Shown here in pieces: positions 9,001-55,604 of a DNA stretch of 57,336 nucleotides. A model generated the notes under the pieces. That model was given only the letters and a program-made list of their open reading frames with translations. It made no database searches and had not been told where the DNA came from. The position numbers were made by a program, and so were the translations under genes. Within the stretch, counting starts at the first letter, position 1, and every line of letters starts with the position of its first letter. Source of the DNA: Candidatus Omnitrophota bacterium (GTDB taxonomy: Bacteria > Omnitrophota > Gorgyraeia > Gygaellales > Profunditerraquicolaceae); NCBI GenBank assembly GCA_023819035.1, contig JAMWCL010000002.1:1-57336 (forward strand). Direction: 5' to 3'.

Positions 9001-12000
9001 AAGCTGTAATGGGTCAGCTACCTGGACCTATGTTCCTGATGAACCCACTCCTTTGGGAAGAATTAAGATTTCTGATTCGCGTACCAATCCTGATAATACT
9101 GATGTAAAAGGGATCTCCCCAAGATTTAATATCATCGGTAATTTCACCATAATTTCACCCAATGGTAACGAAGATTTAAGGGTAGGAACCCAACATAATA
9201 TTACCTGGAGATGGGGTGGAACGATCCCTCAGGTAAGACTATTCTATACTAAAAACCCATCCCCTAATCCAGAAGATGTTCCGGAAAATGATTGGATTGA
9301 GATTGATCCTGAGGTAATTAAAGATTATAGCAATGATGGAAAGGGTGATGGTAGCGGTGACGCAGAACGTAGTTATCTTTGGACCGTACCCGATGATATT
9401 GCCCCTAAGGTAAGGATTAAGATTCAGGATTATAACGATCCGACAGTAAGGGATTACTCTGATAACTTCTTTAAGATTAGAGGTGCATTTACCTTAATTT
9501 CACCTAATGGCCATCCTGAGATTAACTTAGCGGAACGTTGGGTAACCAATGAGAAACACAATATTAGCTGGATAACCTACGGAACCATTCCTTATGTAAG
9601 ATTACAATACTCCAATGATGACTTTATCTCGGATATCCATGAGATAATTCCTGAGCCACCTTATACGGTGGCTAACTGTTTACCGCAAGCACCGGAATTG
9701 ACCTGCACTGGCTCTTATCAATGGACTATCCCCAACGCGGTTTTAAAGGATGATAAAGGTATGTATCTTAATTATAATGCAGTAAAGGTCCGCATTATTG
9801 ATCCTAATGACCCGCCTACCCAGGATGATCCAGGGGTAGCGGATGTCTCAGATAACAATTTTAAGATCGACCATTATAAGATTACCTGGAAGCTCTATGA
9901 TTTAACTACTGGTGAACCATTGACTAATTTATCTTATACTGAAAAGATTACCGGTACAGACATTGTGAATCGTACAGGTGGAGGTCTTACTACCCCGGTG
10001 ATCTTACCCACTACCTATGGAACCTGGACGACTACCTGGATTGCTTCCGGCTATGGTGAAAAGGGTCAGAACTTTGTTGCGGATAGTGACCAGAGCTTTA
10101 CCTTATTCCTGGAGACTACAGTAATTCATATCTGGCGGGCATATTCCGAATTTGCCTATCAACCTCCTGAGACTGAACCACCTACCCCGGATATCTTAAA
10201 TATAAGCTCCTGGTTAGAAAGGGATGGCGCGGTAGTCTCCGGTGCCGTAGTTCCCGATGTTTATCTCTACGATGGGTTAAGCTTAATAAAGAGATTAACC
10301 GCGATAAAGAACGAAGATGACCCTCAGCCCGGTAAGATTACCATCTATTACTGCCAGGATATTCCTTTAGGCGCAGTAGAGATCTGGGTCGGTCAAAGAG
10401 AAGACGGTACTGAGCGCACTGTTCAGGATATTGTTAATGAGGTAGCTCCTTGGATAGTGTCTCAGGAGACAATAAATGAGAGCGCCTTTACTGGATTCTT
10501 TAAACAGACCTGGACAGACACACCTCTAGAATCAGGAAAGGTCTATAATACCATTACTGATATAATGAATAAGAGTGGCGCTCATTTTAGAACCCCAGGT
10601 TCCTTTGAGATAACCGCTGCCAAGAGCCTACAAGAGATGCAGGCAACCGTAAACTCTGTGCTTAATAAACCGATTAGCGAGGTAAGCCAAGAGCTACAAG
10701 AGGCATTAAATACCCAGACCCAGCTAATTAATCAGATGATGACGGAGCAGACCAACATCATTACCCAGAAGACTAATGAAATGCAGGAGACGATAAATAC
10801 AACCATGGAAAGGTTTGAGAATACTACGCGGGAATCCTTGGATCTGTTAGCCTCAGGTGCAAAACAGGCAGTAGAAGCAGGTCAGACCTTGGAATACACC
10901 GCGTTAAAATATTCCTGGAAAGCAACCGTCTCACCCGATCCTGCCTTAGTCAACGATATGATTACCTTACAATGCCAAGGTCAACCCGGAAAGACACCCT
11001 TCTTAACTATTTATAGCTGGGATAACAAATATATTGTGCGCGATGTTCCTTTGAAGGAATCTAGCACCCCTGGTCTTTATATTTATGAGTTTAAAGCAGA
11101 CTCGCGTTTTACCCCTGGTAAAGCCTATACCTACACTATTATTGAGTATGATACCGATGGTTTTGTTACTGGTTCAGGTATGGTAGAAAGTATGTCGATT
11201 ACCACGGTAGCCGGTCTTGCTTCAGCTGCTCCTGAGGCGGAACGCGCAGCTAAAAATGCCTTAGAGGCAATTAAAGCGGTGGAGGCGGTCCTGGCTTCTG
11301 CAGATACAGCAAATGTGGCGTTAACCTTAAGAAATCTTAAAGATTCTATTGAGGCTTTACCAGCAGTTCTTATGCGCGAAGGTCCCACTGCCCGGATTGT
11401 TGAGGCGGTTAATAATATCAGTGAAAGACTAAATGTGATCTTAGGAGAAGAGGGTCTTGATTTAAGTACATTGTTAGAAGAGGCATTAAGCGAATCACCT
11501 ACCCTTAAAGAGATCCGCAAGAAGACCGACACCATAAGTATGATTATTGATTTACTTTTACAGATTGTAGAAGGGAAATTAGGTGGTTTAGATACTCCGG
11601 TGGTTTCTACCTCCCTTATTGCTGGCAGTGTAAGGTTTCGCATTGTGGCGGTTAACCCCTCTACCATTAAAACACATAAGGTTCAGATAAAGAATTATTT
11701 ACCTTTAGAGGTAAAGCCCAAGGATATTTTAGATTTAGGAGGTTTAGAATTAGAATACGATTCCGCAAAAGGAATATATTACTTATATAAACCTGATTTA
11801 GAATTAGCACCTAAAGAGGTGCGTATCTTTGAGGTAGAGGTGGAGGATATCTGGACGATCCCTGAATCTAAGATTAATGAATTAAAGAAGCATACCACGG
11901 ATATCCTTAAGCTTCTGGAGAAAACCAATTATTTTGCGGAAGCAAAGGCTGTCTCCGACAGTATCTATCGCAGTTTAGATGAGATTATAAAATCTCAGAA

Positions 12001-12328: not shown

Positions 12329-12353
12329 ATGCCTTTAAGTTAACTTTTTAAAA

Positions 12354-12390
12354 GGCAACCTCTTGTATAAAAAGGGGTTGTCTTTTTTAT
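12354..12390 (+). terminator. Rho-independent terminator downstream of the giant gene
   Basis: GGCAACCTCT (12354-12363) pairs with AGGGGTTGTC (12373-12382). That is a 10-bp stem with two G-U pairs and a 9-nt loop, followed by TTTTTTAT. Confidence 0.6.
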
Positions 12391-12419
12391 TTAGCATTTT
12401 TTAAAAATAGTGATATAAT
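12391..12419 (+). promoter_or_regulatory. Sigma70-like promoter for the ATPase operon
   Basis: TTAGCA (12391-12396), 17-nt spacer, TATAAT (12414-12419) preceded by TG at 12411-12412 (extended -10). The ATG at 12433 is only 13 nt after the -10 and no SD is visible. Confidence 0.5.
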
Positions 12420-12432
12420 ATATAAAAACAAA

Positions 12433-12666
12433 ATGTTAGATGTAATTGTGGTCAGTGTCCAAAAGAGTATCTTTTCTGGTAAAGCAAAGAGTATAATCTT
12501 TCCAGGGGAAAAGGGGGTATTTGAGATCCTTCCCTTCCACAAGCCCATCTTAAGTAGATTAATCCGGGGAAATCTGGTTATCGACGGAAAAACCTTTTCT
12601 ATCCGAAGAGGAATTGTGGGGTTTAATTATAATAAGGCTTATATAGTTATAGAAGAAGATGGATAG
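12433..12666 (+). CDS. atpC: F-type ATPase epsilon subunit, beta-sandwich domain only (77 aa; the C-terminal helical hairpin is absent)
   Basis: The sequence VSVQKSIFSGKAKSIIFPGEKGVFEILPFHKPILSRLIRGNLVI matches the epsilon N-terminal consensus (lpg.eGe.giLp.H.P.l..L..G). The stop overlaps the next ATG (ATGGATAG). Confidence 0.75.
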   Translation: MLDVIVVSVQKSIFSGKAKSIIFPGEKGVFEILPFHKPILSRLIRGNLVIDGKTFSIRRGIVGFNYNKAYIVIEEDG

Positions 12667-12871
12667 AAATTTAGCATTACTTTTAATTTTTTCTGCTTGT
12701 ATCTTTGGGCCGTGTTGGGTCTTTGCAGTGTGCGCCAAGGCAAGTATTAATGCCTTAGGAAGAAATCCTTCCGCTGCTCCGCGCATATTTACTGCCATGA
12801 TTATTGCCTTGGTCTTCGCCCAGGCAGCAGCGATAATTGCCATGTTAGTTGTATTTCAACTGTTTAGTTAG
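12659..12871 (+). CDS. atpE: F-type ATPase c-subunit-like hairpin protein (70 aa) lacking the ion-binding carboxylate
   Basis: Two hydrophobic helices are joined by the loop GRNPSAAP (canonical ARQPE). Helix 2, TAMIIALVFAQAAAIIAMLVVF, aligns to TTMFIGVALVEALPIIGVV of a canonical c subunit with Q in place of E. It lies between epsilon and b. Confidence 0.7.
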   Translation: MDRNLALLLIFSACIFGPCWVFAVCAKASINALGRNPSAAPRIFTAMIIALVFAQAAAIIAMLVVFQLFS

Positions 12872-12880
12872 GAGGATAAT

Positions 12881-13606
12881 ATGCTTATTGTTTCGTTAGT
12901 GGTAATTCAGGTAATTATCTTTGTAGTTTTATTTTTGTTTTTGCGTAGTAGTTTTAATAAAAATGTAATTAGTGCTACCACCCATCTTGAGCAGTTGTCA
13001 CAGGAATATACCAAGAAACAAGAACAGATAAAAAATCTATATGAGGAAGCCAAACGTCAAACTCAGGAGATTATTGAAAGTTCACGCAAGGATGCCGAAA
13101 AGCAAAGAGAGCAGATCCTGAAGGATGCACAATTAGAAAAAGAAAGGATCTTAAATACCGCCCATCAGCAGGCCAATGAGATTGTAGAGCAGGCAGACAA
13201 AGCAAGAAAGACTTTACTTTCGGAGATAGAAAAGAAGATAGAAGAGAGGGCAATCCAGCGCGCAGGAGATTTATTAAATGAGATTCTTCCTTTGGATCTC
13301 CGTCAGCAGATTCATCAGCACTGGATAGAAGATTTACTTTCGGCAGGGTTTCAGCAATTAGAGCGCCTGCATATACCCGAGGGGATCACCGAGGCAGAGC
13401 TTATCACTGCCTTTGCTTTGGAGCCGATAAAGAAAGAGGTTTTAATAAAAAAGATCCAAGAAAGACTGAATCGTCAGCTTAATTTTAAAGAGAAGGTCGA
13501 CGAAGATATAATTGCAGGTTTAATTGTAAATATTGGAAATCTTGTTTTTGATGGAAGTCTTAGATTAAAGCTCCAGGAGTTAATTAATGCTAAACAGTCA
13601 ACTTAA
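12881..13606 (+). CDS. atpF: F-type ATPase b subunit fused to the C-terminal domain of delta (OSCP)
   Basis: There is an N-terminal TM (LIVSLVVIQVIIFVVLFLFL) and a long charged helix. The C terminus, AELITAFALEPIKKEVLIKKIQERLNRQLNFKEKVDEDIIAGLIVNIGNLVFDGSLRLKLQEL, aligns with the delta C-terminal consensus (...vd.sliGG..i..gd.viDgSv...L..L). Confidence 0.75.
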   Translation: MLIVSLVVIQVIIFVVLFLFLRSSFNKNVISATTHLEQLSQEYTKKQEQIKNLYEEAKRQTQEIIESSRKDAEKQREQILKDAQLEKERILNTAHQQANEIVEQADKARKTLLSEIEKKIEERAIQRAGDLLNEILPLDLRQQIHQHWIEDLLSAGFQQLERLHIPEGITEAELITAFALEPIKKEVLIKKIQERLNRQLNFKEKVDEDIIAGLIVNIGNLVFDGSLRLKLQELINAKQST

Positions 13607-15065
13607 CCAAAAGAGTCAGCCAAGCTTTGAGGTAAAAGAAAAAGGAATCATTACCACTGTCCGCGAATGTATTATAAAGGTTAAAGGGCTTCCCTCCTGT
13701 ATTAACGGTCAGTTGATTGAGTTTAAAGGCGGTGGTCAGGGGATGGTCTTGGGGTTTACCGAGGAGGAGGTTCAGGTTTTAGTTTTGAATTCCAAGGTTA
13801 GTCTCTCTACAGGAGATGAGGTTTACAGTAAAGCAGAGTTCCTTCATCTTCCTGTGGGTGAAGGATTCATCGGCCGTATTGTCAATGCCTTATGCGAACC
13901 CTTAGATGATTTAGGTCCTATCCAGCCCCAAGCTTTTTATCCGGTCTTTGCGGAGGTTCCCGGGGTGATGGATCGTATACCGGTAAAAGAAACCCTGGAG
14001 ACAGGAACCTTGGTTATCGATGCGGTTATACCCATCGCTAAAGGTCAAAGACAACTCCTTATTGGTGACCGCTTAACCGGAAAGACAACAGTAGCGATAG
14101 ATACGATATTAAATCAGAAAGGTAAAGAGGTAATCTGTATTTATTGTTGTATTGGTAAACCCCAGAGTAGCTTAGCAAAGGTCTTGGATCTTCTTAAAGA
14201 AAAGGAGGCGATGTCTTATACAATTGTGGTAAATGGTGTTGCCTCCTGCTCGATGGGAGAACAGTACCTTGCCCCTTATACCGCTGCCATGTTAGGTGAA
14301 TATTTTATGCATCAAGGAAAGGATGTCTTTGTGGTTTTTGATGACTTAACTAAGCATGCCTGGGTTTATCGGCAGATCTCGCTTTTATTGGAGCGCGTTC
14401 CGGGGAGAGAGGCTTATCCTGGAGATATATTTTATATTCACTCCCAGCTTATGGAACGTGCAGGTTACTTAAAACCGGAATTGGGTGGTGGCTCAATGAC
14501 CTTCTTTCCGATTGTGGAGATTTTACAGGGAGATGTTACAGGTTATATCTCAAGTAATCTTATCTCTATGACCGATGGGCAGATCTATTTTAATACCGCT
14601 TTATTTAATAAAGGAATTAGGCCGGCGATCGATTTCGGGCTTTCGGTCTCCCGTATCGGAAACAAGGCCCAATGGCCAGCGATGAAGGCTTTAAGCGGTA
14701 AGTTGCGCTTAGAGTATCTCCAATATCAGGAGCTTCTCCAGATGACCCAGTTGCGTACTACTGGTCTTTCTAAAGAAGCAGAGCAACAGATGAAACGCGG
14801 TCAAGCAATTACCCAGATATTTATCCAGGATAAGAACAGGCCCTTATCCATGGAAGAAGAGATAATTATTCTTTTTGCCTTAAGTATCGGGGTATTAGAT
14901 AATCTTTCAAGTTCTGCGATTAAGGAATTTAAGGAAAAGATTATTGAAATTATTAAAAAGGATTATTCAGATTTACTAGTAGAATTAAGAAGTACTCAGG
15001 TTCTAAGTGATGCCAATATAGAAAGGTTATACGAGGCATTGGATAAATATTTTCAGAATATCTAA
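13587..15065 (+). CDS. atpA: F-type ATPase alpha subunit
   Basis: Walker A GDRLTGKTT, then VFDDLTKHA, REAYPGDIFYIHSQLMERA and ISMTDGQIYF; 492 aa. Confidence 0.92.
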   Translation: MLNSQLNQKSQPSFEVKEKGIITTVRECIIKVKGLPSCINGQLIEFKGGGQGMVLGFTEEEVQVLVLNSKVSLSTGDEVYSKAEFLHLPVGEGFIGRIVNALCEPLDDLGPIQPQAFYPVFAEVPGVMDRIPVKETLETGTLVIDAVIPIAKGQRQLLIGDRLTGKTTVAIDTILNQKGKEVICIYCCIGKPQSSLAKVLDLLKEKEAMSYTIVVNGVASCSMGEQYLAPYTAAMLGEYFMHQGKDVFVVFDDLTKHAWVYRQISLLLERVPGREAYPGDIFYIHSQLMERAGYLKPELGGGSMTFFPIVEILQGDVTGYISSNLISMTDGQIYFNTALFNKGIRPAIDFGLSVSRIGNKAQWPAMKALSGKLRLEYLQYQELLQMTQLRTTGLSKEAEQQMKRGQAITQIFIQDKNRPLSMEEEIIILFALSIGVLDNLSSSAIKEFKEKIIEIIKKDYSDLLVELRSTQVLSDANIERLYEALDKYFQNI

Positions 15066-15068
15066 AAG

Positions 15069-15911
15069 ATGAAGTTACTTTCTCAGATTAAAAAGGATTT
15101 AGAATTTAATCAAGCACTTTTTAATTTGATTGAGGTAATAAAGGAGATCTCCCTTTCTCAATATCATGTGTTAGAAAAACAGAAAAGAGAATTTGGAGAT
15201 CTTTTTGATTGTCTTAAGAATATATTTACGATGATTAGTCTAAGTGAGATTAAGCATCCCTTGCTTGATATACAAGGTCAGCAAGCAGGGGTAATTGCGG
15301 TAACTACCGACACCGGTTTAGTAGGTGGGCTTAATCTTTCGGTAATAAATCTGGCTTTAAAGGAGGTAGAAGAGAATAAAGCTAAATTAATTATTATTGG
15401 AGAAAAAGGTAAGTTTTATGCCCAAGATGCGCAAGTTTCCTTTGTCGCATTTGCTGGGATAAAAGACGATGAATGCCTTAAGCAAGCCCTGGAATTAAGG
15501 GATTACATTATAAAGGAGGAGTTAGAATTAAGGTTAGGTCAATTAAAGATTATCTATCCTTATCCTATCTCAATTGTGGCTCAGCGGGTAGAGACATTAC
15601 AGCTTTTGCCCTTTGTTCTAACTGAGTTTAAGACAAAAGAGGCGTTTTCTTATAAGGAATTAATCCTTGAATCCTCTTTAGAAGATGTCTTAGAATATCT
15701 AATCTATCTTTTGTTAGGCAATAAACTTTATGAGATATTTACCTTAAGCCGCTTAGCAGAATTATCCGCGCGTTTTATGCATTTAGAGGAAAGTAAAACC
15801 AAGATTGAACAGCTTAATCGGCAACTAAGATTACAATACCATCGCCAGCGCCACGAGCTTATTGACCGCACGATGCGCGAACTCTTTGGAGCGCGTCTGG
15901 TCTTCGGTTAA
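15069..15911 (+). CDS. atpG: F-type ATPase gamma subunit
   Basis: 280 aa between alpha and beta. TDTGLVGGLN matches the gamma motif (sd+GLcG..N), and the C-terminal helix is QYHRQRHELIDRTMRELFGA. Confidence 0.85.
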   Translation: MKLLSQIKKDLEFNQALFNLIEVIKEISLSQYHVLEKQKREFGDLFDCLKNIFTMISLSEIKHPLLDIQGQQAGVIAVTTDTGLVGGLNLSVINLALKEVEENKAKLIIIGEKGKFYAQDAQVSFVAFAGIKDDECLKQALELRDYIIKEELELRLGQLKIIYPYPISIVAQRVETLQLLPFVLTEFKTKEAFSYKELILESSLEDVLEYLIYLLLGNKLYEIFTLSRLAELSARFMHLEESKTKIEQLNRQLRLQYHRQRHELIDRTMRELFGARLVFG

Positions 15912-15916
15912 GAATT

Positions 15917-17317
15917 ATGAATAAAGATATAAAAGCATCTATTGGTTATGTGGTGGCGGTCCAGGGACCGGTAGTGGATGTAAAATTCCCTGATTCCGAG
16001 GATATGCCGGCGATTTTAGAGAATCTTAACACCCAGACTGTCGATAGGAAAAGGGTAGTCTTAGAGGTTGTCGAACATCTGCCCGGCAATATCGTGCGCT
16101 GTATTGCAATTAACTCCACCTTTAATCTTCAGCGCCATGCGGTGGTTACGCGTACCGGTGAACCCATCCAGATTCCTCCCGGAGATGCTCTTTATGGCCG
16201 GATTGTTAATTGTTGGGGAAGTCACATAGACCAAAAAGAAGAGATTGTCGCTACCGAGAAGATCCCCATTCGCAAGCCTAAGACCTCAAGTCGACTGATT
16301 TACACCCAGCAACGCGCAGGGGATAAATTTGAGATCCTTGAGACAGGGATTAAGATTATTGACCTGCTCTTTCCTTTAGTTAAAGGAAGCAAGAATGGTA
16401 TCTTAGGTGGTGCTGCCTTAGGAAAGAGTATCTTGACCTTAGAAATAATCCATAATATTGTAAGAAAACATCAGGGTGCCTGTGTCTTTACCGGAGCAGG
16501 AGAGCGTATTCGCGAAGGAAATGAGCTTTACTTTGAGCTTTCCCGTCGGGATATTTTATCCAAGACGGTTTTGATCTTCGGTCAGATGAATGAGCCACCC
16601 GGTGCACGTTTTGAGGTAGCAATGAGTGGGGTTACCTTAGCGGAGTCACTTCAGCAAAAAAATCAAGATGTGCTTTTGTTTGTGGATAATATCTTTCGTT
16701 TCTTACAGGCAGGGGCAGAGATTTCCAGTCTCTTAGGAAGGCTTCCTTCGGAAACCGGTTATCAACCCACCTTAATCTCGGAGGCAAGTGAGTTTCATGA
16801 GAGGATACGCTCCTCTAAAGAGACGGGTGGTTCGATTACCTCGATTGAGGCGGTTTATATCCCTGCGGATGACCTTACTGATCCAGCGGTAGTAACTATA
16901 TTTAGTTTTTTGGATTCCATTATGGTGCTTTCTCGACAGAGGGTGCAATTAGGGCTTTATCCGGCAATCGACCCTTTGCTCTCTTCAAGTGCTAATCTTG
17001 ACCCGGATATCGTAGGGGGGCGCCATTTTGAAGTAGCCCAGGAGGTTTTACATACCCTTCAGCGCTATGAAGAATTAAGAAGGATTGTTATGGTAATTGG
17101 TATCGATGAGCTTTCTGCGGGAGACCGTATCCTTTATGAACGTGCACGGAAATTACAGAATTTTTTAACCCAGCCCTTCTTTGTGGCAGAGGCATATACG
17201 GGTAAGATGGGTGAGTATGTAACCTTAGAACAGACCCTTTTGGGATGCGAAAAGATTATGGCAGGCCATCTGGATCGTCGACCCGAGGGCGAACTCTATA
17301 TGATTGGAGCAATATAA
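15917..17317 (+). CDS. atpD: F-type ATPase beta subunit (catalytic motifs intact)
   Basis: P-loop GGAALGKS, catalytic GAGERIREGNELY, GQMNEPPGAR, Walker B LLFVDNIFRFLQAG, YIPADDLTDPA. The DELSEED region is changed to DELSAGD. Confidence 0.92.
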   Translation: MNKDIKASIGYVVAVQGPVVDVKFPDSEDMPAILENLNTQTVDRKRVVLEVVEHLPGNIVRCIAINSTFNLQRHAVVTRTGEPIQIPPGDALYGRIVNCWGSHIDQKEEIVATEKIPIRKPKTSSRLIYTQQRAGDKFEILETGIKIIDLLFPLVKGSKNGILGGAALGKSILTLEIIHNIVRKHQGACVFTGAGERIREGNELYFELSRRDILSKTVLIFGQMNEPPGARFEVAMSGVTLAESLQQKNQDVLLFVDNIFRFLQAGAEISSLLGRLPSETGYQPTLISEASEFHERIRSSKETGGSITSIEAVYIPADDLTDPAVVTIFSFLDSIMVLSRQRVQLGLYPAIDPLLSSSANLDPDIVGGRHFEVAQEVLHTLQRYEELRRIVMVIGIDELSAGDRILYERARKLQNFLTQPFFVAEAYTGKMGEYVTLEQTLLGCEKIMAGHLDRRPEGELYMIGAI

Positions 17318-17328
17318 AGGAGAAAAAG

Positions 17329-17808
17329 ATGAAAGAAATGCCTAAACGTTTAGGTGAGATATTGCTGGAAAAAGGGCTGATTACCGAGGCACAGCTTTAC
17401 GATGCGTTAGCAGAGCAGAGTCTAAGTAATAAATTCTTAGGAACAATCTTAGTTACCAAAGGCTGGATTACCGAGCATCAACTTATGGAGGCACTTGCTG
17501 AACAGTTCAATATGCCTCTTGTAGAATTAAAGAAAGACCAGGTGAACATGGAGTTGTCTAATTTACTTTCCTCATCCCTGATCTTAGACCATAAGTGTTT
17601 CCCTATAGAGCAAACCCCGGATACCTTAACCGTGGCCATCGTTAATCCCCTGGATGCAGTAGCAATTAGTAAAATCGAACAAGAGGCAAAACCGCGCAAG
17701 ATAAAGCTGGTCTTGGTTACTGAGGAGAACCTAAAAGAGATCCTCTTAGATTATCGTCGGTATATCAGTCAGAGTATCCAACGGCTCTTAAGAAGAGATA
17801 AGAAATAA
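17329..17808 (+). CDS. Stand-alone MshEN (c-di-GMP-binding) + T2SSE_N domain protein
   Basis: ATG at 17329 lies 6 nt after AGGAG (17318-17322); the longer ORF from 17245 overlaps atpD. There are two tandem 24-aa MshEN motifs, RLGEILLEKGLITEAQLYDALAEQ and FLGTILVTKGWITEHQLMEALAEQ, followed by a GspE-N1-like domain (TLTVAIVNPLD). Confidence 0.8.
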   Translation: MKEMPKRLGEILLEKGLITEAQLYDALAEQSLSNKFLGTILVTKGWITEHQLMEALAEQFNMPLVELKKDQVNMELSNLLSSSLILDHKCFPIEQTPDTLTVAIVNPLDAVAISKIEQEAKPRKIKLVLVTEENLKEILLDYRRYISQSIQRLLRRDKK

Positions 17809-19925
17809 TGACTAAGTTCGATACCCTTCTTTATGAAACCCTAATTAATCAAGAAAGATTTAAAAAGGATACCTTACAGCCCTATCTTAAAGAAGCAGAA
17901 CAGATGAATCAACCCTTAGCGAGTGTGCTTATCAGACATAATCTTCTTCCTGAGGTAGAGATTCTGCATATTTTTAGTGAACAGCTTAAGATACCCTTTA
18001 TTGATCTTAAGAATATCTCTATAGAGAAATCAGTCATAGATAAGGTTCCGGTTAAGGTTGCTTTTTATTATAAATTTATTCCTTTACAGATTAAAGAACG
18101 CACCTTGATCATTGCTGTTTCTTTACCCTTAGATATTAAGGTTCAGGATGAGATTCGCACTCAATTAGGTTATGATATTGAGCTTGTGCTTGCTTCTTCC
18201 GCAGATATCCGCGATAGTTTAACTAAATACTATGGTCTTGCTCAGGAGACATTGGAAAAGATTATTGAACGGATCCCTTTTGCCGAAACAAGCAACCTCT
18301 CCTTAGAGAAGATTGAAGACATCGAAAGGTTGGCTGAGGATGCCTCGGTAATAAAATTAGTAAATCAAATAATCCTTGAAGCCTACAGAAAACGTGCTAC
18401 CGATATACACATCGAGCCCTATCGCCAAGGGGTGGTCATTCGTTATCGGATAGATGGGGTTCTTTATGATACTAATGTCCCTACAGAAATTAAAAATCTT
18501 CTTGGGGCGATTATCTCGCGCATAAAGATTATGTCTAATCTCAATATTGTAGAGCGCAGGCTCCCCCAAGATGGTCGGGCAGTGGTAAAGGTTCAGGAGC
18601 AGATTCTTGATTTAAGGATCTCAACCTTACCTACCCCTTTTGGAGAAAGTGTAGTAATTAGAATCCTTCCTACTCAGATGCTCTTTAGTTTGGAGAGGTT
18701 AGGTTTATCCAAGCAGGACTTACAGATATTGGAGAATCTGATTAAAAAACCTCATGGGATTATCTTTGTTACCGGGCCTACGGGAAGCGGAAAGACCACT
18801 ACCTTATATGCCTGTTTAGCCAAGATCAATACCAAGGAAAGAAAGATTATTACCATTGAAGACCCTATTGAATATGAGATGCCGGGGATTACCCAGATCC
18901 AGGTTAATCCCGAGATCGGCTTGGATTTTGCGCGTGGCCTGCGCAGTGCCCTACGACATGATCCTGATGTGATGATGGTCGGTGAGGCGCGGGATTTAGA
19001 GACTGCAGAGACCGCCATCCGCGTTGCCTTAACCGGGCATCTTGTATTTTCTACCCTGCATACCAATGATGCTAGCTCCGGGATTACGCGTTTATTAGAT
19101 ATTGGGATTGAACCATATTTGGTGGCTTCCAGTGTAGAGGCGTTTATTGCTCAGCGTTTGATCCGTTTGATTTGCCCAGAATGTAAATATGAAGACAAGG
19201 CAGCACCTCAAGAATTAAAGATAATGATTGCTAAGGACTTAGGGATTAAATCACTGGAAGAGGTAAGGATCTATCGGGGAAGGGGATGTCCAAATTGTAA
19301 CTTTACAGGATTCTTTGGTCGAACCGGGATATATGAGATACTTTTAGTGGATGAGACTATCAAGGATTCAATCTTAAAAAAGACCCCTTCCAACCAAATC
19401 AAAAAGAGCGCTATCTCCGAAGGGATGCATACCTTAAGACAGGATGGTTGGCAGAAGGTGATTGCGGGAATTACCCCTCCTGAAGAGGTAATGAAGGTTA
19501 CCCCCCAGGAGGAAGAGGTAGAAAAAGCCACCTCTGTCTATTATCCTGGAGTTTCTTCTGCAGGAAGGGAATTAGAGAAAAGGATTTATAAACGTCTGGA
19601 TAGCCGTATCCTTATAAGTTACCGTATCTTTAAGGCTCAAGAAGAATTAATTAAGCGGGGGGTCTCGTCTGAGCAGATCAGTATTACCAAGAATATCTCA
19701 GCAGGGGGATTGCTTTTTATCTCTCCCGAGGCATTACCTGTAGGGGAGGTGCTTGAGCTTAAGATAGAGCTTCCTGATGGAGAAAGCCCGGTCGATTGCT
19801 TAGCCAGGGTGGTAAGAACAGAGATGACCAGGGATGACAAATATGAGATCGGGGTCTGTTTCTTAGATATCACGGGCGCACAAAGGTCTAGGTTAGATAG
19901 ATATGTAGAGGCGGAGGTAAGATAA
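17808..19925 (+). CDS. gspE: GspE/PilB-family secretion ATPase with a C-terminal PilZ domain
   Basis: Walker A GPTGSGKTTT, DPDVMMVGEARD, His box TGHLVFSTLHTND, zinc motif CPECK...CPNC. The C-terminal ~116 aa carry PilZ motifs RIYKR (RxxxR) and NISAGG ((D/N)xSxxG). The start overlaps the previous stop by 1 nt. Confidence 0.9.
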   Translation: MTKFDTLLYETLINQERFKKDTLQPYLKEAEQMNQPLASVLIRHNLLPEVEILHIFSEQLKIPFIDLKNISIEKSVIDKVPVKVAFYYKFIPLQIKERTLIIAVSLPLDIKVQDEIRTQLGYDIELVLASSADIRDSLTKYYGLAQETLEKIIERIPFAETSNLSLEKIEDIERLAEDASVIKLVNQIILEAYRKRATDIHIEPYRQGVVIRYRIDGVLYDTNVPTEIKNLLGAIISRIKIMSNLNIVERRLPQDGRAVVKVQEQILDLRISTLPTPFGESVVIRILPTQMLFSLERLGLSKQDLQILENLIKKPHGIIFVTGPTGSGKTTTLYACLAKINTKERKIITIEDPIEYEMPGITQIQVNPEIGLDFARGLRSALRHDPDVMMVGEARDLETAETAIRVALTGHLVFSTLHTNDASSGITRLLDIGIEPYLVASSVEAFIAQRLIRLICPECKYEDKAAPQELKIMIAKDLGIKSLEEVRIYRGRGCPNCNFTGFFGRTGIYEILLVDETIKDSILKKTPSNQIKKSAISEGMHTLRQDGWQKVIAGITPPEEVMKVTPQEEEVEKATSVYYPGVSSAGRELEKRIYKRLDSRILISYRIFKAQEELIKRGVSSEQISITKNISAGGLLFISPEALPVGEVLELKIELPDGESPVDCLARVVRTEMTRDDKYEIGVCFLDITGAQRSRLDRYVEAEVR

Positions 19926-19928
19926 TTT

Positions 19929-21143
19929 ATGCCTATCTATAAGTATCGCGCAAAAAAAGATCCGCAACATACGGTGGAAGGAGAGATAGATGCATTAAAT
20001 GAGAATGAGGCAGTAGAGAAACTCAGTCAGATAGGTTATCTTCCCATAAGCCTTCATTTAGTCAAAGAAGGGCTTACTCCTAAGCCTGCTCCTTTTCGCT
20101 TATTGGGTAAGATAAAGCCCAGACAGATTACTGTTTTTACTCGACAGTTGGCCAGCCTCTTAAAAGCAGGTGTTCCTATCCTTACCAGTATCAATATCCT
20201 AAAGGAACAATCAGAGAGTATCCCTTTAAACAATCTTCTTAAACGGCTCCATGATCGACTTAATGAGGGAGCGACCTTTTCTGCTTCCTTAGAGGAATTC
20301 CCTCAGGTTTTCCCTTCTCTTTATGTGGCTATGATTCGTTCTGGAGAAGATAGCGGTACCCTCACTGAGGTTCTTTTAAAGATTGCTGATTATCGCACAA
20401 AACAAGAGGAGATTCTCCAGCGTTTGCGCACTGCTTTAGTTTATCCTCTCTTGATGGCAGTGGTCGGAATAGCCACCATTATCTTTATGCTTACCTTTGT
20501 GATGCCTCGTTTGATGAGTATATTTGCTAATCTGCAAGAAGAATTACCCTTACCGACTAAGCTCTTACTTTGGGTAAGTAAAACTCTTAAGGATTGGGGT
20601 CTTTGGTTAATCATTATCTTAGGGATGATTATCTTGATGCTTAGGCGTCAGGCGATGACTGAATCAGGTAGATTATCCTTAGCGCGCTGGCAATTAAGAA
20701 TTCCTATATTAGGAGGATTTATCCTGAAAAATGAGCTTGCCCGTTTTAGCCGAACATTGGAGCTTTTACTTAAAAATGGCCTGTCCATATTAAAGGCAAT
20801 TGAGGTAGCTATACCGGTTTTAAGGAATGCCCTGCTTAAGCAGGAGCTTCTAAAAAGCTCTAAGGATTTACAACAAGGTGGCTCCTTTGGCAGGAGCCTT
20901 AAGAATTCAGCTTTATTTCCTTCTTTTATGAGTAATCTTGTACTTGTGGGAGAGGAGTCAGGAGCACTGGCTGATTCCTTAGCTGAGGTTGCTCAGGCCT
21001 ATGAGGGCGACACCGAGGAGACAATAAGGATTTTTTTATCTTTACTTGAACCGTTGCTAATCCTGGGTATGGGTTTAATAGTGGGGTTTATTGTGATTGC
21101 CATGCTTTTGCCTATCTTTCAGATCAATGTGATGGCGCGGTAA
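19929..21143 (+). CDS. gspF: GspF/PilC-family inner-membrane platform protein
   Basis: 404 aa with two T2SSF-like repeats (FTRQLASLLKAGVPIL; FSRTLELLLKNGLSILKA) and three TM segments. It lies directly after gspE. Confidence 0.9.
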   Translation: MPIYKYRAKKDPQHTVEGEIDALNENEAVEKLSQIGYLPISLHLVKEGLTPKPAPFRLLGKIKPRQITVFTRQLASLLKAGVPILTSINILKEQSESIPLNNLLKRLHDRLNEGATFSASLEEFPQVFPSLYVAMIRSGEDSGTLTEVLLKIADYRTKQEEILQRLRTALVYPLLMAVVGIATIIFMLTFVMPRLMSIFANLQEELPLPTKLLLWVSKTLKDWGLWLIIILGMIILMLRRQAMTESGRLSLARWQLRIPILGGFILKNELARFSRTLELLLKNGLSILKAIEVAIPVLRNALLKQELLKSSKDLQQGGSFGRSLKNSALFPSFMSNLVLVGEESGALADSLAEVAQAYEGDTEETIRIFLSLLEPLLILGMGLIVGFIVIAMLLPIFQINVMAR

Positions 21144-21192: not shown

Positions 21193-21582
21193 ATGTCCGA
21201 AAAAAAGAAAATCTTTATTGCTGATGATGATGAAACAGTCTTAACCAGTTTGAAAAGATTATTGGTTCTTGCTGGTTTTGAGGTGGAGACCGCGCAAAGA
21301 GCCAAGGAGGTAACCTCAAGAATTAAGGGCTTTAAACCCGACTTGATCATTCTGGATCTGTTGATGCCGAATTTAGGTGGACTGGAGATATGCGAGATGT
21401 TAAACCAGGATAAAGAGACTCAAAATATCCCGATTATTGTGGTCTCTGGATTAGCGGGTATCGAGGATATAAAAAAAGCTTATAGATTAGGTGTAATTAA
21501 TTACTTTACAAAACCTTACGATTTTGATAAGCTATTAAAAGAGATTAACAAAGCCATTATCTATAAAGAAAAAAAGATATAA
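21193..21582 (+). CDS. Single-domain response regulator (REC only)
   Basis: IFIADDDE, LIILDLLMPNLGG, VVSG, TKPYD. Confidence 0.88.
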   Translation: MSEKKKIFIADDDETVLTSLKRLLVLAGFEVETAQRAKEVTSRIKGFKPDLIILDLLMPNLGGLEICEMLNQDKETQNIPIIVVSGLAGIEDIKKAYRLGVINYFTKPYDFDKLLKEINKAIIYKEKKI

Positions 21583-21607
21583 CCTTAAACTAATATAAAT
21601 TAAATTT

Positions 21608-23521
21608 ATGATTTTTAAAAGTATAAAAGAGAGGATATTTTTCTTAAATTTTATCTTACTGATTGGGGTTATTTTATTCTTAGGGGTTAGCTCTTATTGG
21701 CTATTGAGAGAGTATCTTTTCCGGACAGAAAAGGACAGATTGCATCATATTAGTGATATTATAAATGAGAGTATTCAATATTATCTTTTAGAAAGGGCAA
21801 AGGCAATGGGTCTAATTATAAATAATATAGCTATAGATGAATATTTCCTGATGAGAAATAAGGATATCCTTTATGATTATTTTAACAGATTAAAACATGG
21901 TTTTCCCGTAATCGGGATTTTTAATATGAGGGGAAAGCAAGAGGTAAAATTAATAGAGGGTAGGTTATCGGAGGAAGAGGAGGATCTCTCTAATAACCCT
22001 TATTTTAAGCAGGCCTTAGAAAAGGTTAATCAGATAGTCATCGCTCCTCAGGTAGAACTTTCTTTAAGCTTAAAAGGAATCCCAACTATTAAATTGATGA
22101 TAACAAGAACCTCTTATTTTAGGGATAACCCTCTGGTGGTACTGGTAGCCGAGGTTTTACTTTCTGATATACATCAGCTTATTTATGAGCATATAAAGGA
22201 TAAGTCTTACTTTATAATTATAATTGATAAGGAAGGAAACCTTCTTGCCTGTCCTGAAAAGGATAGACTTTTAATTAAGCTTAACGGTGAAGGGAAGAAT
22301 TTTGAGGAATTATTATTTAATGCTACTAGTTTAAAGAGCGGTTTTACCAGGGCTTCTATTATGGGTATTGATGCACTGGTCAGTTATGTTCCGCTGAAAA
22401 ACCTGTCCTGGTCTGTTCTAGCTGGTTTATCTTATGCTGATTTTATGAAGGCTCCGAATACGCTTAAAAAAATAGTAGGAATAATCTTTCTCTGCGTATT
22501 TATTATCGCTGCCTTTGTCTTGACTAAATTAGCAGAATATATCTCCTTTCCATTAAAAAGAATTACCGCTTTAACTAGTGAAATCGCCAAGGGAGATTTT
22601 TCAAAACAGATAGATTTTAAATCGCAAGATGAGATAGGTAGACTAAGCGATTCTTTTAATTTAATGATTCAAAATTTACAAAAAACCTTGGTCTCGCGGG
22701 ATGAATTAAGCAAAGAGATAGAGGAACGCAAGGCAATTGAAGAAGAGCTGTTAAACTCCTTAGAACAACTCCAACAGACCCAGGAAGAACTCATCCAGAC
22801 CGCCAAGATGGCTTCTTTAGGCCAGCTTGCTGCTGGCCTTGCCCATGAGATAAACAATCCCTTAACCGGTGTCTTAAACAATGTGCAGTTATTGAAGATG
22901 GAGATGGAGGCAAAACCTGAAGGCATATCTTCTAGCGAACTTAAAGAGATCCTGGATATAATAGAAGAAGCAGCCATGCGCTGTAAGAAGATAACCCAGT
23001 CATTATTAGATTTTTCCCGTGCCTCCCGCCAGGATCAACAGCGGGTCTCAATGAATGAGGTGGTAGAACGGGTAGTTGACTTGGTCAGCCATGAGTTAAG
23101 ACTGCAGAATATCCTTATCCAGACCAACTTAGACCCACAACTTCCCCTACTCCAAGGCAACCCTCAGCTCCTTCAGCAGGTAGTGATGAATATTATCACT
23201 AATGCCCAGTGGGCAATCAAGAAGAAATCCGGTCCGCAAGGCGGAACCATCTCTATAAGAACAGAGCAGGACCTAAAAAACCAAAGAGTAAATGTTTTTA
23301 TCTCTGACACCGGTATTGGTATCTCAGATGAGACTAGACAGAGGATCTTTGAACCGTTCTTTACCACTAAGGAGGTAGGGGAGGGAACCGGTTTGGGTCT
23401 GGCGGTGGTCTACCGGATTATCCAGGATCACAAAGGCAGTATTGAGGTAGAAAGCAAATTAGGCGAAGGCACGACCTTTAAGCTCTCCCTGCCTATCTTT
23501 GAAGAAAAGAAAGAGATATGA
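21608..23521 (+). CDS. Membrane sensor histidine kinase (periplasmic Cache-like region, HAMP, HisKA, HATPase_c)
   Basis: Two TM segments flank a ~260-aa extracytoplasmic region. HAMP is [25 protein letters not shown], the H-box is LAHEINNPL, and the G boxes are DTGIGI and GTGLGL. Confidence 0.88.
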
Positions 23522-24261
23522 GTGATAAAAGAACCTTAAAGGTCTTGGTAGTAGATGATGAGAAGGTGGTCAGGGATTTTTTAGCTCGGCTCTTGAGGTT
23601 AGAAGGCATAGAGGTAAAGACTGCTAATGATGGGTTGGAAGCAATTGAGGCAGTGAAAGAAGAAAAGTTTGATTTGGTTTTTCTGGATATTCGCATGCCT
23701 AAGATGAACGGTCTGGAGGTTTTTACTGAACTTAAGAAGATTGATCTGGATTTAAGATGTATCTTTATGACCGGTTATGCCTTAGAGACATATCTATTTG
23801 ATAAATGTAAGTCACCCGGAATATTTTGTTTAAGAAAGCCCTTTGAGGATATCAATCAGATAAAGTCAGCAATTAATAAGGTCTTGCAGGAGAGTAAGGC
23901 GTCTGTTCTGACAAAGGAAGGCTTACCAGAAAGAAGAGTCTACCAGCGCTTAGAGGTGGCGCTGGAGGTGGATTATAGATTAAAAGAGAAAGAAGCACCC
24001 TTTATCCACTCTTTAAGTAAGGATATCTCCCCGGATGGAATAAGGATTATTACCCAGGGAGAACTTCCTCCTGGTTGTTTATTAGAACTTCTGATTAGGG
24101 TTCCTGGTTATAATGAGGCCTTTAAGGCAACCGGTAAGGTAATCTGGAATAAGGTTCTACAAGACAGACCCGGCTATTATTACGCAGGAATAGAATTTAC
24201 CGAGATAAACCTGGCTGAATTTACCGATTTTCTTTTGCGCTCAGGCAGGATTTCTGTTTAA
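23518..24261 (+). CDS. Response regulator with a C-terminal PilZ domain (REC-PilZ)
   Basis: REC motifs: VLVVDDE, LVFLDIRMPKMNG, RKPF. PilZ motifs: RVYQR (RxxxR) and DISPDG (DxSxxG). There is a 4-nt overlap with the upstream kinase. Confidence 0.82.
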   Translation: MSDKRTLKVLVVDDEKVVRDFLARLLRLEGIEVKTANDGLEAIEAVKEEKFDLVFLDIRMPKMNGLEVFTELKKIDLDLRCIFMTGYALETYLFDKCKSPGIFCLRKPFEDINQIKSAINKVLQESKASVLTKEGLPERRVYQRLEVALEVDYRLKEKEAPFIHSLSKDISPDGIRIITQGELPPGCLLELLIRVPGYNEAFKATGKVIWNKVLQDRPGYYYAGIEFTEINLAEFTDFLLRSGRISV

Positions 24262-24329
24262 TAGAATTGGTCACCGAATAACTACCTATAGATTTTTAAT
24301 CCACAAGAAGACGAAGCAGATCATAAATA

Positions 24330-25871
24330 ATGACTAATATAGATACATTAGTTGAAGAGAATAAACGACTAGCGCAAGAATTAAAGCAACGGCTTTTTGA
24401 ATTATCTATACTTTACGATATAACCAACAGCATCAGTTATACCTTAAACTACGATGATTTCTTAAGAATTATAATGAATTCTTTAAACAAGTTTCTTGAT
24501 TATGATATCTGTACCTCTTTGATTATCCTTGAGGAAGAGAAAAAAGCAAAGATGTGCATCCATATCGCCCATTCCCTGCCGATAAGGATTGTGGAAGAGA
24601 TAAAACGCAAGGTGATAAATACATTGAGAAGCTTAAGGGCAAAGCCAATTACTGAAGATCAGATTACACTTGATTTAAAAGGTGATATATTAAATGATGA
24701 AGGTTCATACCAGAATATAAAATCTTCCTTTGATGTACCTTTGTTTGCGGGAGATAAGGTGGTAGGGCTTTTAAATGTGGCAAGCACAAAGGATATCGCT
24801 TATTCCGATAATGAGATAAAACTCTTTTATACCTTAGCCACCCAGGCCTCTTTTTCCATTGAGAAACTACAGGCGGTGTTAGCTGGAGAGAAAAGTAAGA
24901 TGAAGGTAATGGTGGAGGGTATGTCTGAAGGTGTGGTGATGTTCGATGAGCAGGATAAGCTGGTTATCTTCAATGCTGCAGCCAGAGAGATGATAGGCGA
25001 AAATCTGGATTTATTAGGTTCGCTGGAGGAGATAAGGAAAGTGCAAAAAAAATCTTTTGATATACATTTAGATAAGCCCTATCCGCGCATCATTAATAGT
25101 CAGGCGATGTGCATTAAGGATGATGAAGGTAAATCATTAGGGATAGTTATCCTTTTAAAGGATGTTACCCGGGAGCGAGAGATTGACCAGATGAAGTCGG
25201 ATTTTATCTCAGTAGTCTCCCACGAATTGCGTACGCCCTTAACCGCCTTAAAAGGAGCAATAGACAATCTTTTAGACGGGATTGCCGGTGAATTAAATCA
25301 GATACAAAAGGAATGTCTTCTAGTTAGCAAGCGCAATATCGACCGTTTAAACCGGATGATCTCTGAGCTTTTAGATATCTCACGCATTGAGGCAGGGAAG
25401 ATTCAGATAAACAAACAACCCACCGATATAACAGGTTTAATAAATGAGGTTCTACGCCTCTTCCAGGATATGGCGGAGGCAAGTGGAATCATCCTAGGCG
25501 CAGAGATTGCCTCTGATTTGCCTAAGATTAATCTTGATCCGGATAAGATTACTCAGGTGCTTACCAATTTAGTAGGTAATGCTGTAAAGTTTACTCCTGC
25601 TGGCGGTCGGATTACGGTTAGGGCAGGGGTATTAAAAGATTTTATTCAGGTGGATGTAATTGATACAGGCCTGGGCATTCCCCATCAGGATTTAGAAAAG
25701 ATATTTGACAAGTTTTATCAGGTATCCCGTCTTGGCGGTTCAAGGACTCCTAAGGGCACAGGATTGGGGCTTCCCATATGCAAGGGTATTGTAGAAAGAC
25801 ACGGTGGAAGGATTTGGGTTGAAAGCGAATTAGGCAAAGGAAGCAAATTCAGTTTTACCTTACCTATATAA
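24330..25871 (+). CDS. Cytoplasmic sensor histidine kinase (GAF-like + PAS-like + HisKA + HATPase_c)
   Basis: No TM segment. H-box [14 protein letters not shown]-box [23 protein letters not shown]. Confidence 0.88.
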
Positions 25872-26246
25872 ATGCCAAAGAAGATACTGATTATTGATGA
25901 CGAGGAGGATGTGGCAGCGATGGCGAAACTGCGTCTTCAGGCAAGCGGTTTTTCCTGCTTTGAGGCATATACTGCTCAAGAAGGATTAAAAATGGCAGAG
26001 GAAGAAGCCCCTGACCTTATCCTTTTGGATATTCTATTACCTGATAGCCATGGCGTTGAGGTCTGTAGAAGATTAAAATCTAATCCCAAAACGCGGGAGA
26101 TTGCTATTATTATTTTTAGTGCCTCTAATTTGAAGGAAATGGTAGAAAAGGCTATTGAGGCAGGAGCGGTAGATTATATTATCAAGCCTTTTGAACCCAG
26201 CGAGTTGCTTGAGAAGATAGATAAGGCACTGGATTTAACAAAATAA
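25872..26246 (+). CDS. Single-domain response regulator (REC only)
   Basis: ILIIDDEED, LILLDILLPDSHG, IKPFE. It starts immediately after the kinase stop. Confidence 0.88.
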   Translation: MPKKILIIDDEEDVAAMAKLRLQASGFSCFEAYTAQEGLKMAEEEAPDLILLDILLPDSHGVEVCRRLKSNPKTREIAIIIFSASNLKEMVEKAIEAGAVDYIIKPFEPSELLEKIDKALDLTK

Positions 26247-26255
26247 GAGTCGCTT

Positions 26256-26642
26256 ATGAATGAAATTAAGAAAAAGATTTTGGTTGTTGATGATGAGCCG
26301 GATATCTTAAATATGATTAGACTGCGTCTGGAAGCCAATGGGTATGAGGTTATCACTGCCTCTGATGGAAACACCGCCTATCAAAGAGCAAGATCAGATT
26401 CTCCGGACTTGATTATCCTGGATTTGATGCTTCCGGGTATGGATGGTTATCAGGTTTGTCGGCTCTTAAAATTTGATGAGCGGTATCGTTCTATACCGGT
26501 AATTATACTTACCGCCCTAAGTCAGAAGGAGGATAAGGAGTGGGCAGAGAAGGTAGGTGCGGATTGTTATCTGACCAAGCCCTTTGAGTCAGACGAACTC
26601 TTAAATAAGATTAAAGAATTTTTCAGGAGGCAAGATGTCTAA
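26256..26642 (+). CDS. Single-domain response regulator (REC only)
   Basis: ILVVDDEPD, LIILDLMLPGMDG, ILTA, TKPFE. Confidence 0.88.
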   Translation: MNEIKKKILVVDDEPDILNMIRLRLEANGYEVITASDGNTAYQRARSDSPDLIILDLMLPGMDGYQVCRLLKFDERYRSIPVIILTALSQKEDKEWAEKVGADCYLTKPFESDELLNKIKEFFRRQDV

Positions 26643-28152: not shown

Positions 28153-28166
28153 GAAGTAAGGCAAAA

Positions 28167-28910: not shown

Positions 28911-28931
28911 AGATGAAAAAAGGAGAAGGGA

Positions 28932-29351: not shown

Positions 29352-29383
29352 CCAATTTGATAGCTGTATAAAGGAGGGAACTA

Positions 29384-49243: not shown

Positions 49244-49254
49244 TCTAAAAGAAT

Positions 49255-50493: not shown

Positions 50494-50495
50494 TT

Positions 50496-52124: not shown

Positions 52125-52140
52125 AAAAGGAGTATAGATT

Positions 52141-55603: not shown

Positions 55604-55604
55604 A

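Follow-up and report, generated by a model that had tools for sequence, protein, structure and literature searches.

Organization of the ATPase-GspE/GspF gene cluster

The DNA analyzed here is a 57,336-nt stretch (the window; contig JAMWCL010000002.1 of assembly GCA_023819035.1, positions 1 to 57,336) from a Candidatus Omnitrophota bacterium. Members of this phylum are ultra-small and abundant, have not been cultured, and probably live as predators or parasites. The window carries the genes of an F-type ATPase, ordered ε, c, a b/δ fusion, α, γ, and β, which run directly into the genes for a small MshEN-only protein, a GspE-type ATPase with a C-terminal PilZ domain, and a GspF-type platform protein (Table 1). 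A gene for a giant protein precedes ε, and pseudopilin and assembly genes follow farther downstream.

From ε (12433) through GspF (21143), all junctions range from a 20-nt overlap to an 11-nt gap. Within the ATPase block, ε and c overlap by 8 nt and b/δ and α by 20 nt; gaps of 9, 3, and 5 nt separate c from b/δ, α from γ, and γ from β. At the end of β, positions 17305-17335 read ...GCAATA TAA AGGAG AAAAAG ATG..., which puts 11 nt between the β stop codon and the MshEN start codon. The MshEN stop codon (TAA, 17806-17808) and the GspE start codon (17808) share one A (TAATG), a 1-nt overlap, and the GspE stop codon (19923-19925) is followed by TTT and then by the GspF ATG at 19929, a 3-nt gap. 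A preliminary description of the window had given the same spacing for these three junctions, and all three were confirmed. The mechanical open reading frame (ORF) of the MshEN-only protein opens at an ATG inside β (17245). We placed the start at 17329 instead, because only this ATG has a Shine-Dalgarno sequence and because homologs begin at the equivalent Met (MEKSxKRIGEIL...).

No signal was found that would divide this unit. The predicted RNA fold of 17260-17380 is no more stable than that of shuffled sequences (z = −0.07) and leaves the Shine-Dalgarno sequence and the AUG of the β/MshEN junction unpaired. Promoter-like matches between 12000 and 24500 occur at shuffle level (31 versus 30.8 expected), with none at this junction, as the preliminary description had noted in finding neither hairpin nor promoter there. 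A terminator scan of the plus strand from 12386 to 21143 gave nothing convincing; internal promoters and terminators were accordingly rejected, the short intragenic hairpins being unconvincing and the promoter-like matches no more frequent than in shuffles. A terminator-like hairpin and a promoter-like site are both seen upstream of ε, where the preliminary description had placed a terminator and a promoter; the promoter-like site, 14 nt 5′ of the ε ATG, matches better than any other in the region. An Rfam scan of the whole window returned no match, and hence no c-di-GMP (cyclic di-GMP) riboswitch ahead of the operon.

Preceded by a terminator-like hairpin and a promoter-like site, the genes from ε to GspF thus form one compact, translationally coupled unit. 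The tight junctions, the absent terminator signal, and the conserved gene order (see below) support the earlier reading of this unit as an operon, and we infer a single transcript from a promoter at ∼12391-12419.

Table 1. Coordinates of features in the window (TM, transmembrane)
Feature	Position	Strand	Details
Giant protein	59-12328	+	4089 aa
Anchor module of giant protein	10196-12328	+	C-terminal ∼710 aa; no Pfam match
Terminator-like hairpin	12350-12386	+	15 bp and U-run; 3′ of giant gene; intergenic fold z = −2.33
Promoter-like site	12391-12419	+	TTAGCA-17-TGnTATAAT; 10/12 positions, extended −10; consensus match only
ε	12433-12666	+	77 aa; Pfam ATP-synt_DE_N 2.2e-10; β-sandwich N-terminal domain alone
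c, divergent	12659-12871	+	70 aa; Pfam ATP-synt_C 6.4e-08
b/δ fusion	12881-13606	+	241 aa; N-terminal TM helix, b-like helix, δ/OSCP C-terminal domain only
α	13587-15065	+	492 aa; Walker A GDRLTGKT intact
γ, divergent	15069-15911	+	280 aa; Pfam ATP-synt 3.8e-34
β	15917-17317	+	466 aa; NCBIfam atpD 557 versus cut-off 463
β/MshEN junction	17315-17331	+	Stop TAA 17315-17317, AGGAG 17318-17322, 6 nt, ATG 17329
MshEN-only protein	17329-17808	+	159 aa; NCBIfam NF053729 "c-di-GMP_motif" 77 bits versus cut-off 38
GspE-type ATPase	17808-19925	+	705 aa; Pfam T2SSE 6e-130, MshEN, PilZ
GspF-type platform	19929-21143	+	404 aa; Pfam T2SSF, two copies
Signaling insertion	21193-29773	+	8.6 kb; between GspF and peptidase
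Peptidase_MA_2 zinc protease	29792-30655	+	Signal peptide, HEMAH; between GspF and GspG in all relatives
Pseudopilin and assembly genes	30720-35097	+	Same order in relatives
GspG	30720-31115	+	NCBIfam 144.5 versus cut-off 88.85, passes
Minor pseudopilin	31093-31485	+	
GspJ-like	31460-32047	+	T2SSJ Pfam match
GspK-like	31980-33062	+	T2SSK Pfam match
PilM-PilN fusion, GspL-like	33047-34540	+	
PilO/GspM-like	34513-35097	+	
Second type-4-filament cluster	48794-56273		Without attached F-type ATPase

Conservation in Omnitrophota

Genome and metagenome scans with β and α alignments were swamped by ordinary atpD and atpA (generic peptide patterns), with L001 and L086-L091 as the useful yield; the remaining related loci were found by exact-protein look-up. 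We compared L001, L081/82, L083, L084, L087, L089, and L166-L169, together with the fragments L085, L088, L090, and L091. The window β has hundreds of homologs (71-83% identity), nearly all of which, where named, come from Candidatus Omnitrophota; β identity in the compared loci is 68-79%, versus ∼50% for canonical atpD of other phyla. Likewise, family α subunits are 56-74% identical to that of the window, and the next-best metagenome α subunits and canonical atpA reach at most 47%, a separation seen in pairwise identity.

The shared order starts with the giant protein or its C-terminal module and continues with ε, c, b/δ, α, γ, β, zero to two MshEN-only genes, GspE-PilZ, GspF, regulators in some loci, Peptidase_MA, GspG through GspK, PilMN, and PilO. 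The synteny comparison suggested by the preliminary description found the succession β, (MshEN), GspE-PilZ, GspF in 9/9 independent relatives with long enough loci, so that the refuting outcome named there, a lack of synteny in all relatives, did not occur. Outside the block, the genes vary: S15/PNPase, ResB, a histidine kinase or, in the window, DUF1573/M48/L21. Because the flanks change around an intact block, the block is a unit and not mere regional synteny.

Spacing after β is conserved as well. The gap to the MshEN gene lies between −4 and 14 nt in five of the seven relatives that keep this gene (14 nt in L166, 12 nt in L167, 10 nt in L169, 2 nt in L083, and an overlap of 4 nt in L168, next to 11 nt in the window); at the β junction of L081 it is 56 nt.

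Two loci differ within the ATPase block itself. L001, the most divergent (β 69%), has no ε or c before b/δ, an unrelated 224-aa ORF abutting b/δ (L001:1-1454), and two MshEN-only genes after β; its contig ends 731 nt upstream, and loss of ε and c is therefore unproven. L090 (2643-5595) carries tandem α paralogs, 56 and 53% identical to the window α, between b/δ and γ.

Subunits of the F-type ATPase

Both α and β are close to those of canonical F1. The window α passes the NCBIfam atpA cut-offs (569 versus 554 and 549 versus 484) and scores 380-490 bits against solved F1 α chains; β scores 407-468 bits against solved canonical F1 chains and 333 bits against the solved G1-ATPase β. The β motifs are present (Walker A GGAALGKS, the catalytic Glu of GERIREG, and Walker B LLFVDNIFRF), and none of the catalytic residues varies among 17 homologs. 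From the passed cut-offs and the invariant catalytic residues, the α3β3 core would still be a working F1. The δ-binding N terminus of α may be shortened, as weakly suggested by an alignment that starts at residue 8 against profile position 19.

Of a canonical F1Fo enzyme, the window thus has α and β; a full-length set of γ, ε, δ, and b is not there. ε aligns with positions 1-67 of a 130-position NCBIfam profile (38 bits versus a cut-off of 67) and has no C-terminal inhibitory helices; in relatives, ε is 75-92 aa long. The b/δ fusion matches positions 97-168 of the 172-position Pfam OSCP profile, which leaves the δ N-terminal domain missing. All its NCBIfam b and δ matches are below cut-off (δ 46 versus 57.5), and it has a weak full-length match to the N-ATPase b model TIGR03321 (positions 8-228 of 246). 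The γ subunit reaches 86 bits versus an NCBIfam cut-off of 194. This divergence agrees with the few strict γ matches in a 2026 preprint (bioRxiv 10.64898/2026.06.07.730766), which reports α and β in 125 of 176 complete Omnitrophota genomes and γ in 30 at strict thresholds.

Missing a subunit and altered c subunit

An a-subunit hidden Markov model, built from ten Pfam-verified a subunits and run on six-frame translations, gave no match (E ≤ 10) in the 284 kb that make up the window and 14 related loci, whole genomes lying outside this search. The same model matches 52/79 canonical atpD-centered loci. In line with this result, no window ORF matches ATP-synt_A, and none of the 14 related loci has an a subunit in the surrounding ∼6-10 kb.

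The c subunit of the window has a Gln (FAQAAA) opposite the ion-binding Glu of solved c subunits in PDB alignments. Among 120 cluster representatives of the c family, the ion site is Glu in 77, Gln in 41, and Met in 2, so that 43/120 are without a carboxylate; a stricter statement, that every c subunit of the family is without a carboxylate, was rejected, being true of only about a third. The site has changed state at least 21 times on a neighbor-joining tree of these representatives, and 23 nearest-neighbor pairs differ. The helix-1 packing motif GxGxGxG occurs in 0/120 family members and is absent from the window c as well, and the GRNP loop that contacts γ and ε is kept in 118/120 and in the window c. 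The two membrane features expected of canonical F1Fo, an a subunit encoded with the complex and a c subunit with Glu/Asp and GxGxGxG, are thus both missing from the window. Taken together, the c sequences point to relaxed selection on ion binding and retained selection on rotor contact.

Judged by the missing a subunit, the altered c, and the truncated ε and δ, the ATPase is probably not an ATP synthase. It is unlikely, although it has real points in its favor, that the operon encodes an ordinary F1Fo ATP synthase with its a subunit elsewhere and that its position beside secretion genes is inherited order without function. Split atp operons occur in other bacteria, α and β pass canonical equivalog cut-offs and score 430-490 bits against the best solved F1 structures, and the c, b, and δ parts are recognizable, with Glu kept in the majority of c subunits. 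However, the sole c gene of the operon has Gln in the window, as Gln or Met stands in more than a third of the family, none of the related loci has an a subunit nearby, and ε and δ have lost the domains for regulation and stalk attachment. Also against a housekeeping synthase are the constancy of the block amid changing flanks and the frequent presence of a V/A-type ATPase in the phylum; the 2026 preprint gives V/A-type subunits in 70-99% of Gorgyraeia outside Pluralincolimonadales. Metabolic reconstructions that score "F-type ATP synthase present" from α and β alone are likely wrong for this cluster.

Anchor module of the giant protein

The giant protein has a TM helix at aa 4043-4064 (nt 12185-12250), followed by a 25-aa cytoplasmic tail. 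By BLASTP, upstream ORFs of relatives match aa 3382-4088 of the window protein at 35-56% identity, most strictly aa 3855-4088. This anchor module is kept even in upstream proteins of only 267-840 aa, and its gene lies directly upstream of ε in 11/11 relatives that cover the region. In 5 of these 11 it is at most 32 nt from ε, which leaves no room for a terminator. The preliminary description had the giant gene linked to the ATPase by adjacency only, a view not supported by this conserved position and spacing.

An AlphaFold2 (AF2) model of the module from 40 sequences (predicted local distance difference test score, 73) consists of immunoglobulin (Ig)-like sandwiches, helical bundles, and the terminal TM helix. 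Foldseek against the PDB gave generic Ig-like matches alone and nothing like an a subunit or a stator. The modeled module looks like a stalk and an anchor, with no pointer to catalysis.

These findings bear on a second alternative, in which the ATPase would serve the giant tail-anchored protein (its insertion, tensioning, or movement) and not GspE/GspF, the secretion genes being a separate partner. The invariable place of the module ahead of ε, its close spacing in some relatives, and its retention in short proteins all speak for such a partnership, and a pairing with surface proteins is also known from the Mycoplasma Type 3 ATPase. Nevertheless, we consider it improbable. Strong terminator hairpins separate the giant gene from ε in the window, L084, L166, and L167 (none was seen in seven other relatives), and one is never found between β and GspF. 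Moreover, the cytoplasmic tail is just 25 aa long, the AF2 and Foldseek results give no hint of an ATPase-binding fold, and L001 shows no giant-related ORF upstream of b/δ.

Three further observations concern the upstream proteins. The giant gene contains a tandem duplication at 143-4618 (period, 2217 nt; copies at 143-2401 and 2360-4618, with 100% identity across 2259 nt), which is either a very recent copy of ∼739 aa of Ig-like repeats or an assembly artifact. In the 840-aa upstream protein of L084 (L084:3468-5990), 713 aa align at 52% to the giant C-terminal module, and its precomputed Radical_SAM Pfam label is probably due to a short N-terminal part or spurious. The 475-aa upstream protein of L090 holds two copies of the anchor module.

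Predicted c-di-GMP inputs and the pseudopilus machine

The MshEN-only protein begins with a 53-residue predicted c-di-GMP-binding module (aa 7-59), followed by a GSPII/T2SSE_N-type domain. Its first motif, RLGEILLEKGLITEAQLYDALAEQ, strictly fits the 24-residue consensus (PMC5013675) and is separated by a 5-residue spacer from the second, which has Phe in place of Arg as its first residue, as in most of the orthologs checked. The motif match and the NF053729 score support the label of c-di-GMP sensor given in the preliminary description, whose labels for the GspE-PilZ ATPase and GspF hold as well (Pfam T2SSE, PilZ, and T2SSF).

The tandem 53-residue motif is that of the MshE-type, c-di-GMP-gated ATPases of type II secretion and type IV pili (Wang et al. 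2016, PMC5013675). In contrast to MshE, however, the motif resides on a separate 159-aa protein, and the MshEN-fold domain at the N terminus of the GspE-type ATPase has lost it. This ATPase has instead a C-terminal PilZ domain (aa 622-701, Pfam 4.5e-16) with the motifs RxxxR (RIYKR) and (D/N)xSxxG (NISAGG), which are also present in three of four orthologs checked. L089 has two standalone PilZ-like ORFs 3′ of GspE (16423-17481).

GspE and GspF are the best NCBIfam names of the ATPase (590 bits, just below the cut-off of 630) and the platform protein (362 bits versus 424). With GspG and the GspJ/K-like proteins, they make up the GspE, GspF, GspG, GspJ/K set of a type II secretion system (T2SS). 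No secretin GspD, GspC, or prepilin peptidase GspO was found in the cluster, the 57-kb window, or the clusters of relatives; these proteins may be encoded elsewhere in the genome.

A second type-4-filament cluster of the window encodes an MshEN-only protein (149 aa) whose c-di-GMP motif is relaxed, a PilT-like ATPase (412 aa), PilB (542 aa), PilC (399 aa), two pilin genes, and an OmpR-type two-component pair in opposite orientation. No F-type ATPase is attached to it; the ATPase link is therefore specific to the GspE-PilZ paralog.

Comparison with known systems

Seymour et al. 2023 (Nat Microbiol, PMC10066038) described "symbiotic" loci across Omnitrophota in which an F-type ATPase, proposed to be non-respiratory, adjoins a type-4a pilus. 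Their ATPase clusters lie at most 10 kb from type-4 pilus clusters in 57 of the 66 contigs that carry both systems and occur in every class, with 56/111 Velamenicoccia species in the reported Omnitrophota tally. The loci are often near a giant ORF, may serve host-cell attachment and motility, and have an α that was grouped with Mycoplasma type 2/3 ATPases. Our cluster is the same thing, an Omnitrophota F-type ATPase adjoining type-4-filament genes: the distance from α/β to pilus/T2SS-type genes, at most 10 kb in the published definition, is 11 nt in the window and similarly within that limit in relatives. It differs from the published account in that the partner scores best as GspE/GspF/GspG and not as PilB/PilC/PilA, and in that α and β pass canonical models and fail Mycoplasma-specific ones. 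West-Roberts et al. and the 2026 preprint report type II/IV secretion genes around giant genes.

The association of an ATPase with type-4 filaments is hence already published, and the operon and subunit details were not found in the literature searched. Those parts of the text and supplements of Seymour et al. that were searched make no mention of a, c, ε/δ truncation, or the junctions. A search of the open-access literature found no earlier report of an a-less F-type ATPase or of c-ring changes in Omnitrophota, and none on the conserved anchor module, ε/δ truncation, or the junctions within the operon.

The Type 2 (gliding, G1-ATPase) and Type 3 ATPases of Mycoplasma resemble the window complex as extra F1-derived ATPases of host-dependent bacteria that are encoded in operons beside surface-machine genes and are not used for ATP synthesis; the Type 3 enzyme (F1-like X0) is required for the surface MIB-MIP system (PMC3369863, PMC11864180, PMC12994834). 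Their clusters comprise seven genes, with very divergent γ and ε, three unrelated proteins, and no b, δ, or c homologs, whereas the window keeps a recognizable c and b/δ and has none of the extra proteins. Membership in these types was rejected on NCBIfam cut-offs (glide_MMOB1660 401 versus 600, MMOB1670 409 versus 850, MSC_0619 309 versus 520, and MSC_0618 387 versus 570), PDB scores, and gene content.

The N-ATPase, an alternate F1Fo with the gene order atpDCQRBEFAG (Dibrova et al. 2010, PMC2881411), is likewise a second, laterally mobile F-type operon, and its long b model covers nearly the whole b/δ fusion. In contrast to it, the window operon has no AtpQ, AtpR, or a and runs ε, c, b/δ, α, γ, β. 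Membership was rejected on the scores of α (524 versus 750), β (498 versus 752), γ (33 versus 282), and b (42 versus 225).

FliH-FliI-FliJ (SctL-SctN-SctO) offers an analogy of another kind, an F1-related ATPase with a b/δ-like stalk and a γ-like shaft on a secretion apparatus. FliH is said, from work by Pallen et al. in 2006, to be homologous to b plus δ. The window complex differs from FliHIJ in its hetero-hexamer type of α and β, its c subunit, and its type II/type-4-filament partner in place of type III. α and β reach 164-179 bits in the FliI/SctN models versus cut-offs of ∼600, and membership in this family was rejected.

Proposed function

We propose, with a probability of about 0.6, that the operon encodes an ATP-hydrolyzing rotary motor and not a chemiosmotic synthase, and that this motor would serve the co-encoded envelope machine under c-di-GMP control. 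In the proposed mechanism, α3β3 would hydrolyze ATP and thereby turn γ, ε, and a c-ring that no longer needs ions, with the single-TM b/δ stalk holding the motor. With no a subunit as a counterpart, stalk and ring would have to engage other membrane proteins; the co-encoded candidates are GspF, PilMN/PilO, the pseudopilins, and the giant protein's TM anchor. The pseudopilus apparatus, the anchored giant protein, or both could then receive work or energy for assembly from the motor. The timing of the motor and of the GspE-driven pseudopilus may be set by c-di-GMP, through the MshEN protein and PilZ, and by the two-component genes nearby. By analogy, the closest working precedents would be FliH-FliI-FliJ of type III export and the Type 3 ATPase of Mycoplasma. 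A more specific version, in which an F-type rotary ATPase with c-ring and stalks has abandoned ion translocation and drives the T2SS-like pseudopilus and/or the giant-fiber anchor as a mechanical rotor, is tentative, and we rather doubt it. It would be a second, independent case, after FliHIJ in type III systems, in which a secretion or filament apparatus has recruited an F/V-type ATPase, and the first with a c-ring. The preliminary description had speculated that the F1-like complex is an accessory energizer or assembly factor for the secretion/pilus apparatus or the giant tail-anchored fiber; this would be a reasonable hypothesis, although the co-located loci and a proposed non-respiratory role date from Seymour et al. 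2023.

Several observations weigh against our proposal. The a subunit could lie elsewhere in the genome, beyond the searched loci. Two thirds of the family c subunits retain Glu, so that many lineages may still bind ions; α and β are ordinary enough for NCBI models to name them ATP synthase subunits. With neither secretin nor prepilin peptidase in the cluster or the window, the "secretion" output itself is uncertain. Tight spacing alone is weak evidence in this genome, because all called genes from 59 to 53340 are on the plus strand with short gaps; the GC skew is positive throughout. Finally, some relatives depart from the close β junction. In L084 it measures 102 nt, with room for and the motif of an internal promoter. 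In L087, a TPR lipoprotein gene (13868-14500) stands in place of MshEN, with a 27-nt gap and no terminator. In L089, 403 nt with a strong promoter-like motif, and no MshEN, separate β from GspE. The small gene between β and GspE is interchangeable among relatives (L087 and L089), and co-transcription would be the rule across them, though probably not a universal one.

The least probable of the alternatives is a promoter shared for co-regulation alone (e.g. for host-cell attachment) by complexes that never touch or exchange energy: the operon is indeed rich in c-di-GMP and two-component inputs, and the sequences demonstrate no contact, but co-regulation does not require immediate adjacency across the classes of the phylum and leaves the degeneration of the parts that couple F1 to ion flow unexplained.

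Few molecular machines are understood as well as rotary ATPases. To our knowledge, their re-use for non-bioenergetic work is rare, the known cases being Mycoplasma gliding, MIB-MIP, and FliI. The locus provides a concrete, conserved parts list for another candidate: an intact α3β3 core, degenerate coupling parts, two predicted c-di-GMP inputs, and fixed neighbors. If a motor function is correct, the complex should hydrolyze ATP without ion movement, sit at the base of the pseudopilus or the giant protein, and be needed for the working of the machine. Although this kind of locus has been known since 2023, the assembled anatomy sharpens a hypothesis that, if confirmed, would be of interest to both the rotary-ATPase and the secretion fields.

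Neighboring genes

The signaling insertion between GspF and the peptidase holds seven response-regulator-type genes (including one double-receiver and one REC-PilZ), two histidine kinases (dCache-HAMP and GAF), and a second PilB/GspE-type ATPase at 26635-28152. It is missing from most relatives, in which the peptidase directly follows GspF; L083 has a smaller version. Either a cargo role or a processing role within the machine is conceivable for the Peptidase_MA_2 protease. Housekeeping genes (L21, Obg, proB/proA-like, S1, and TyrRS) are interspersed between both pilus clusters of the window.

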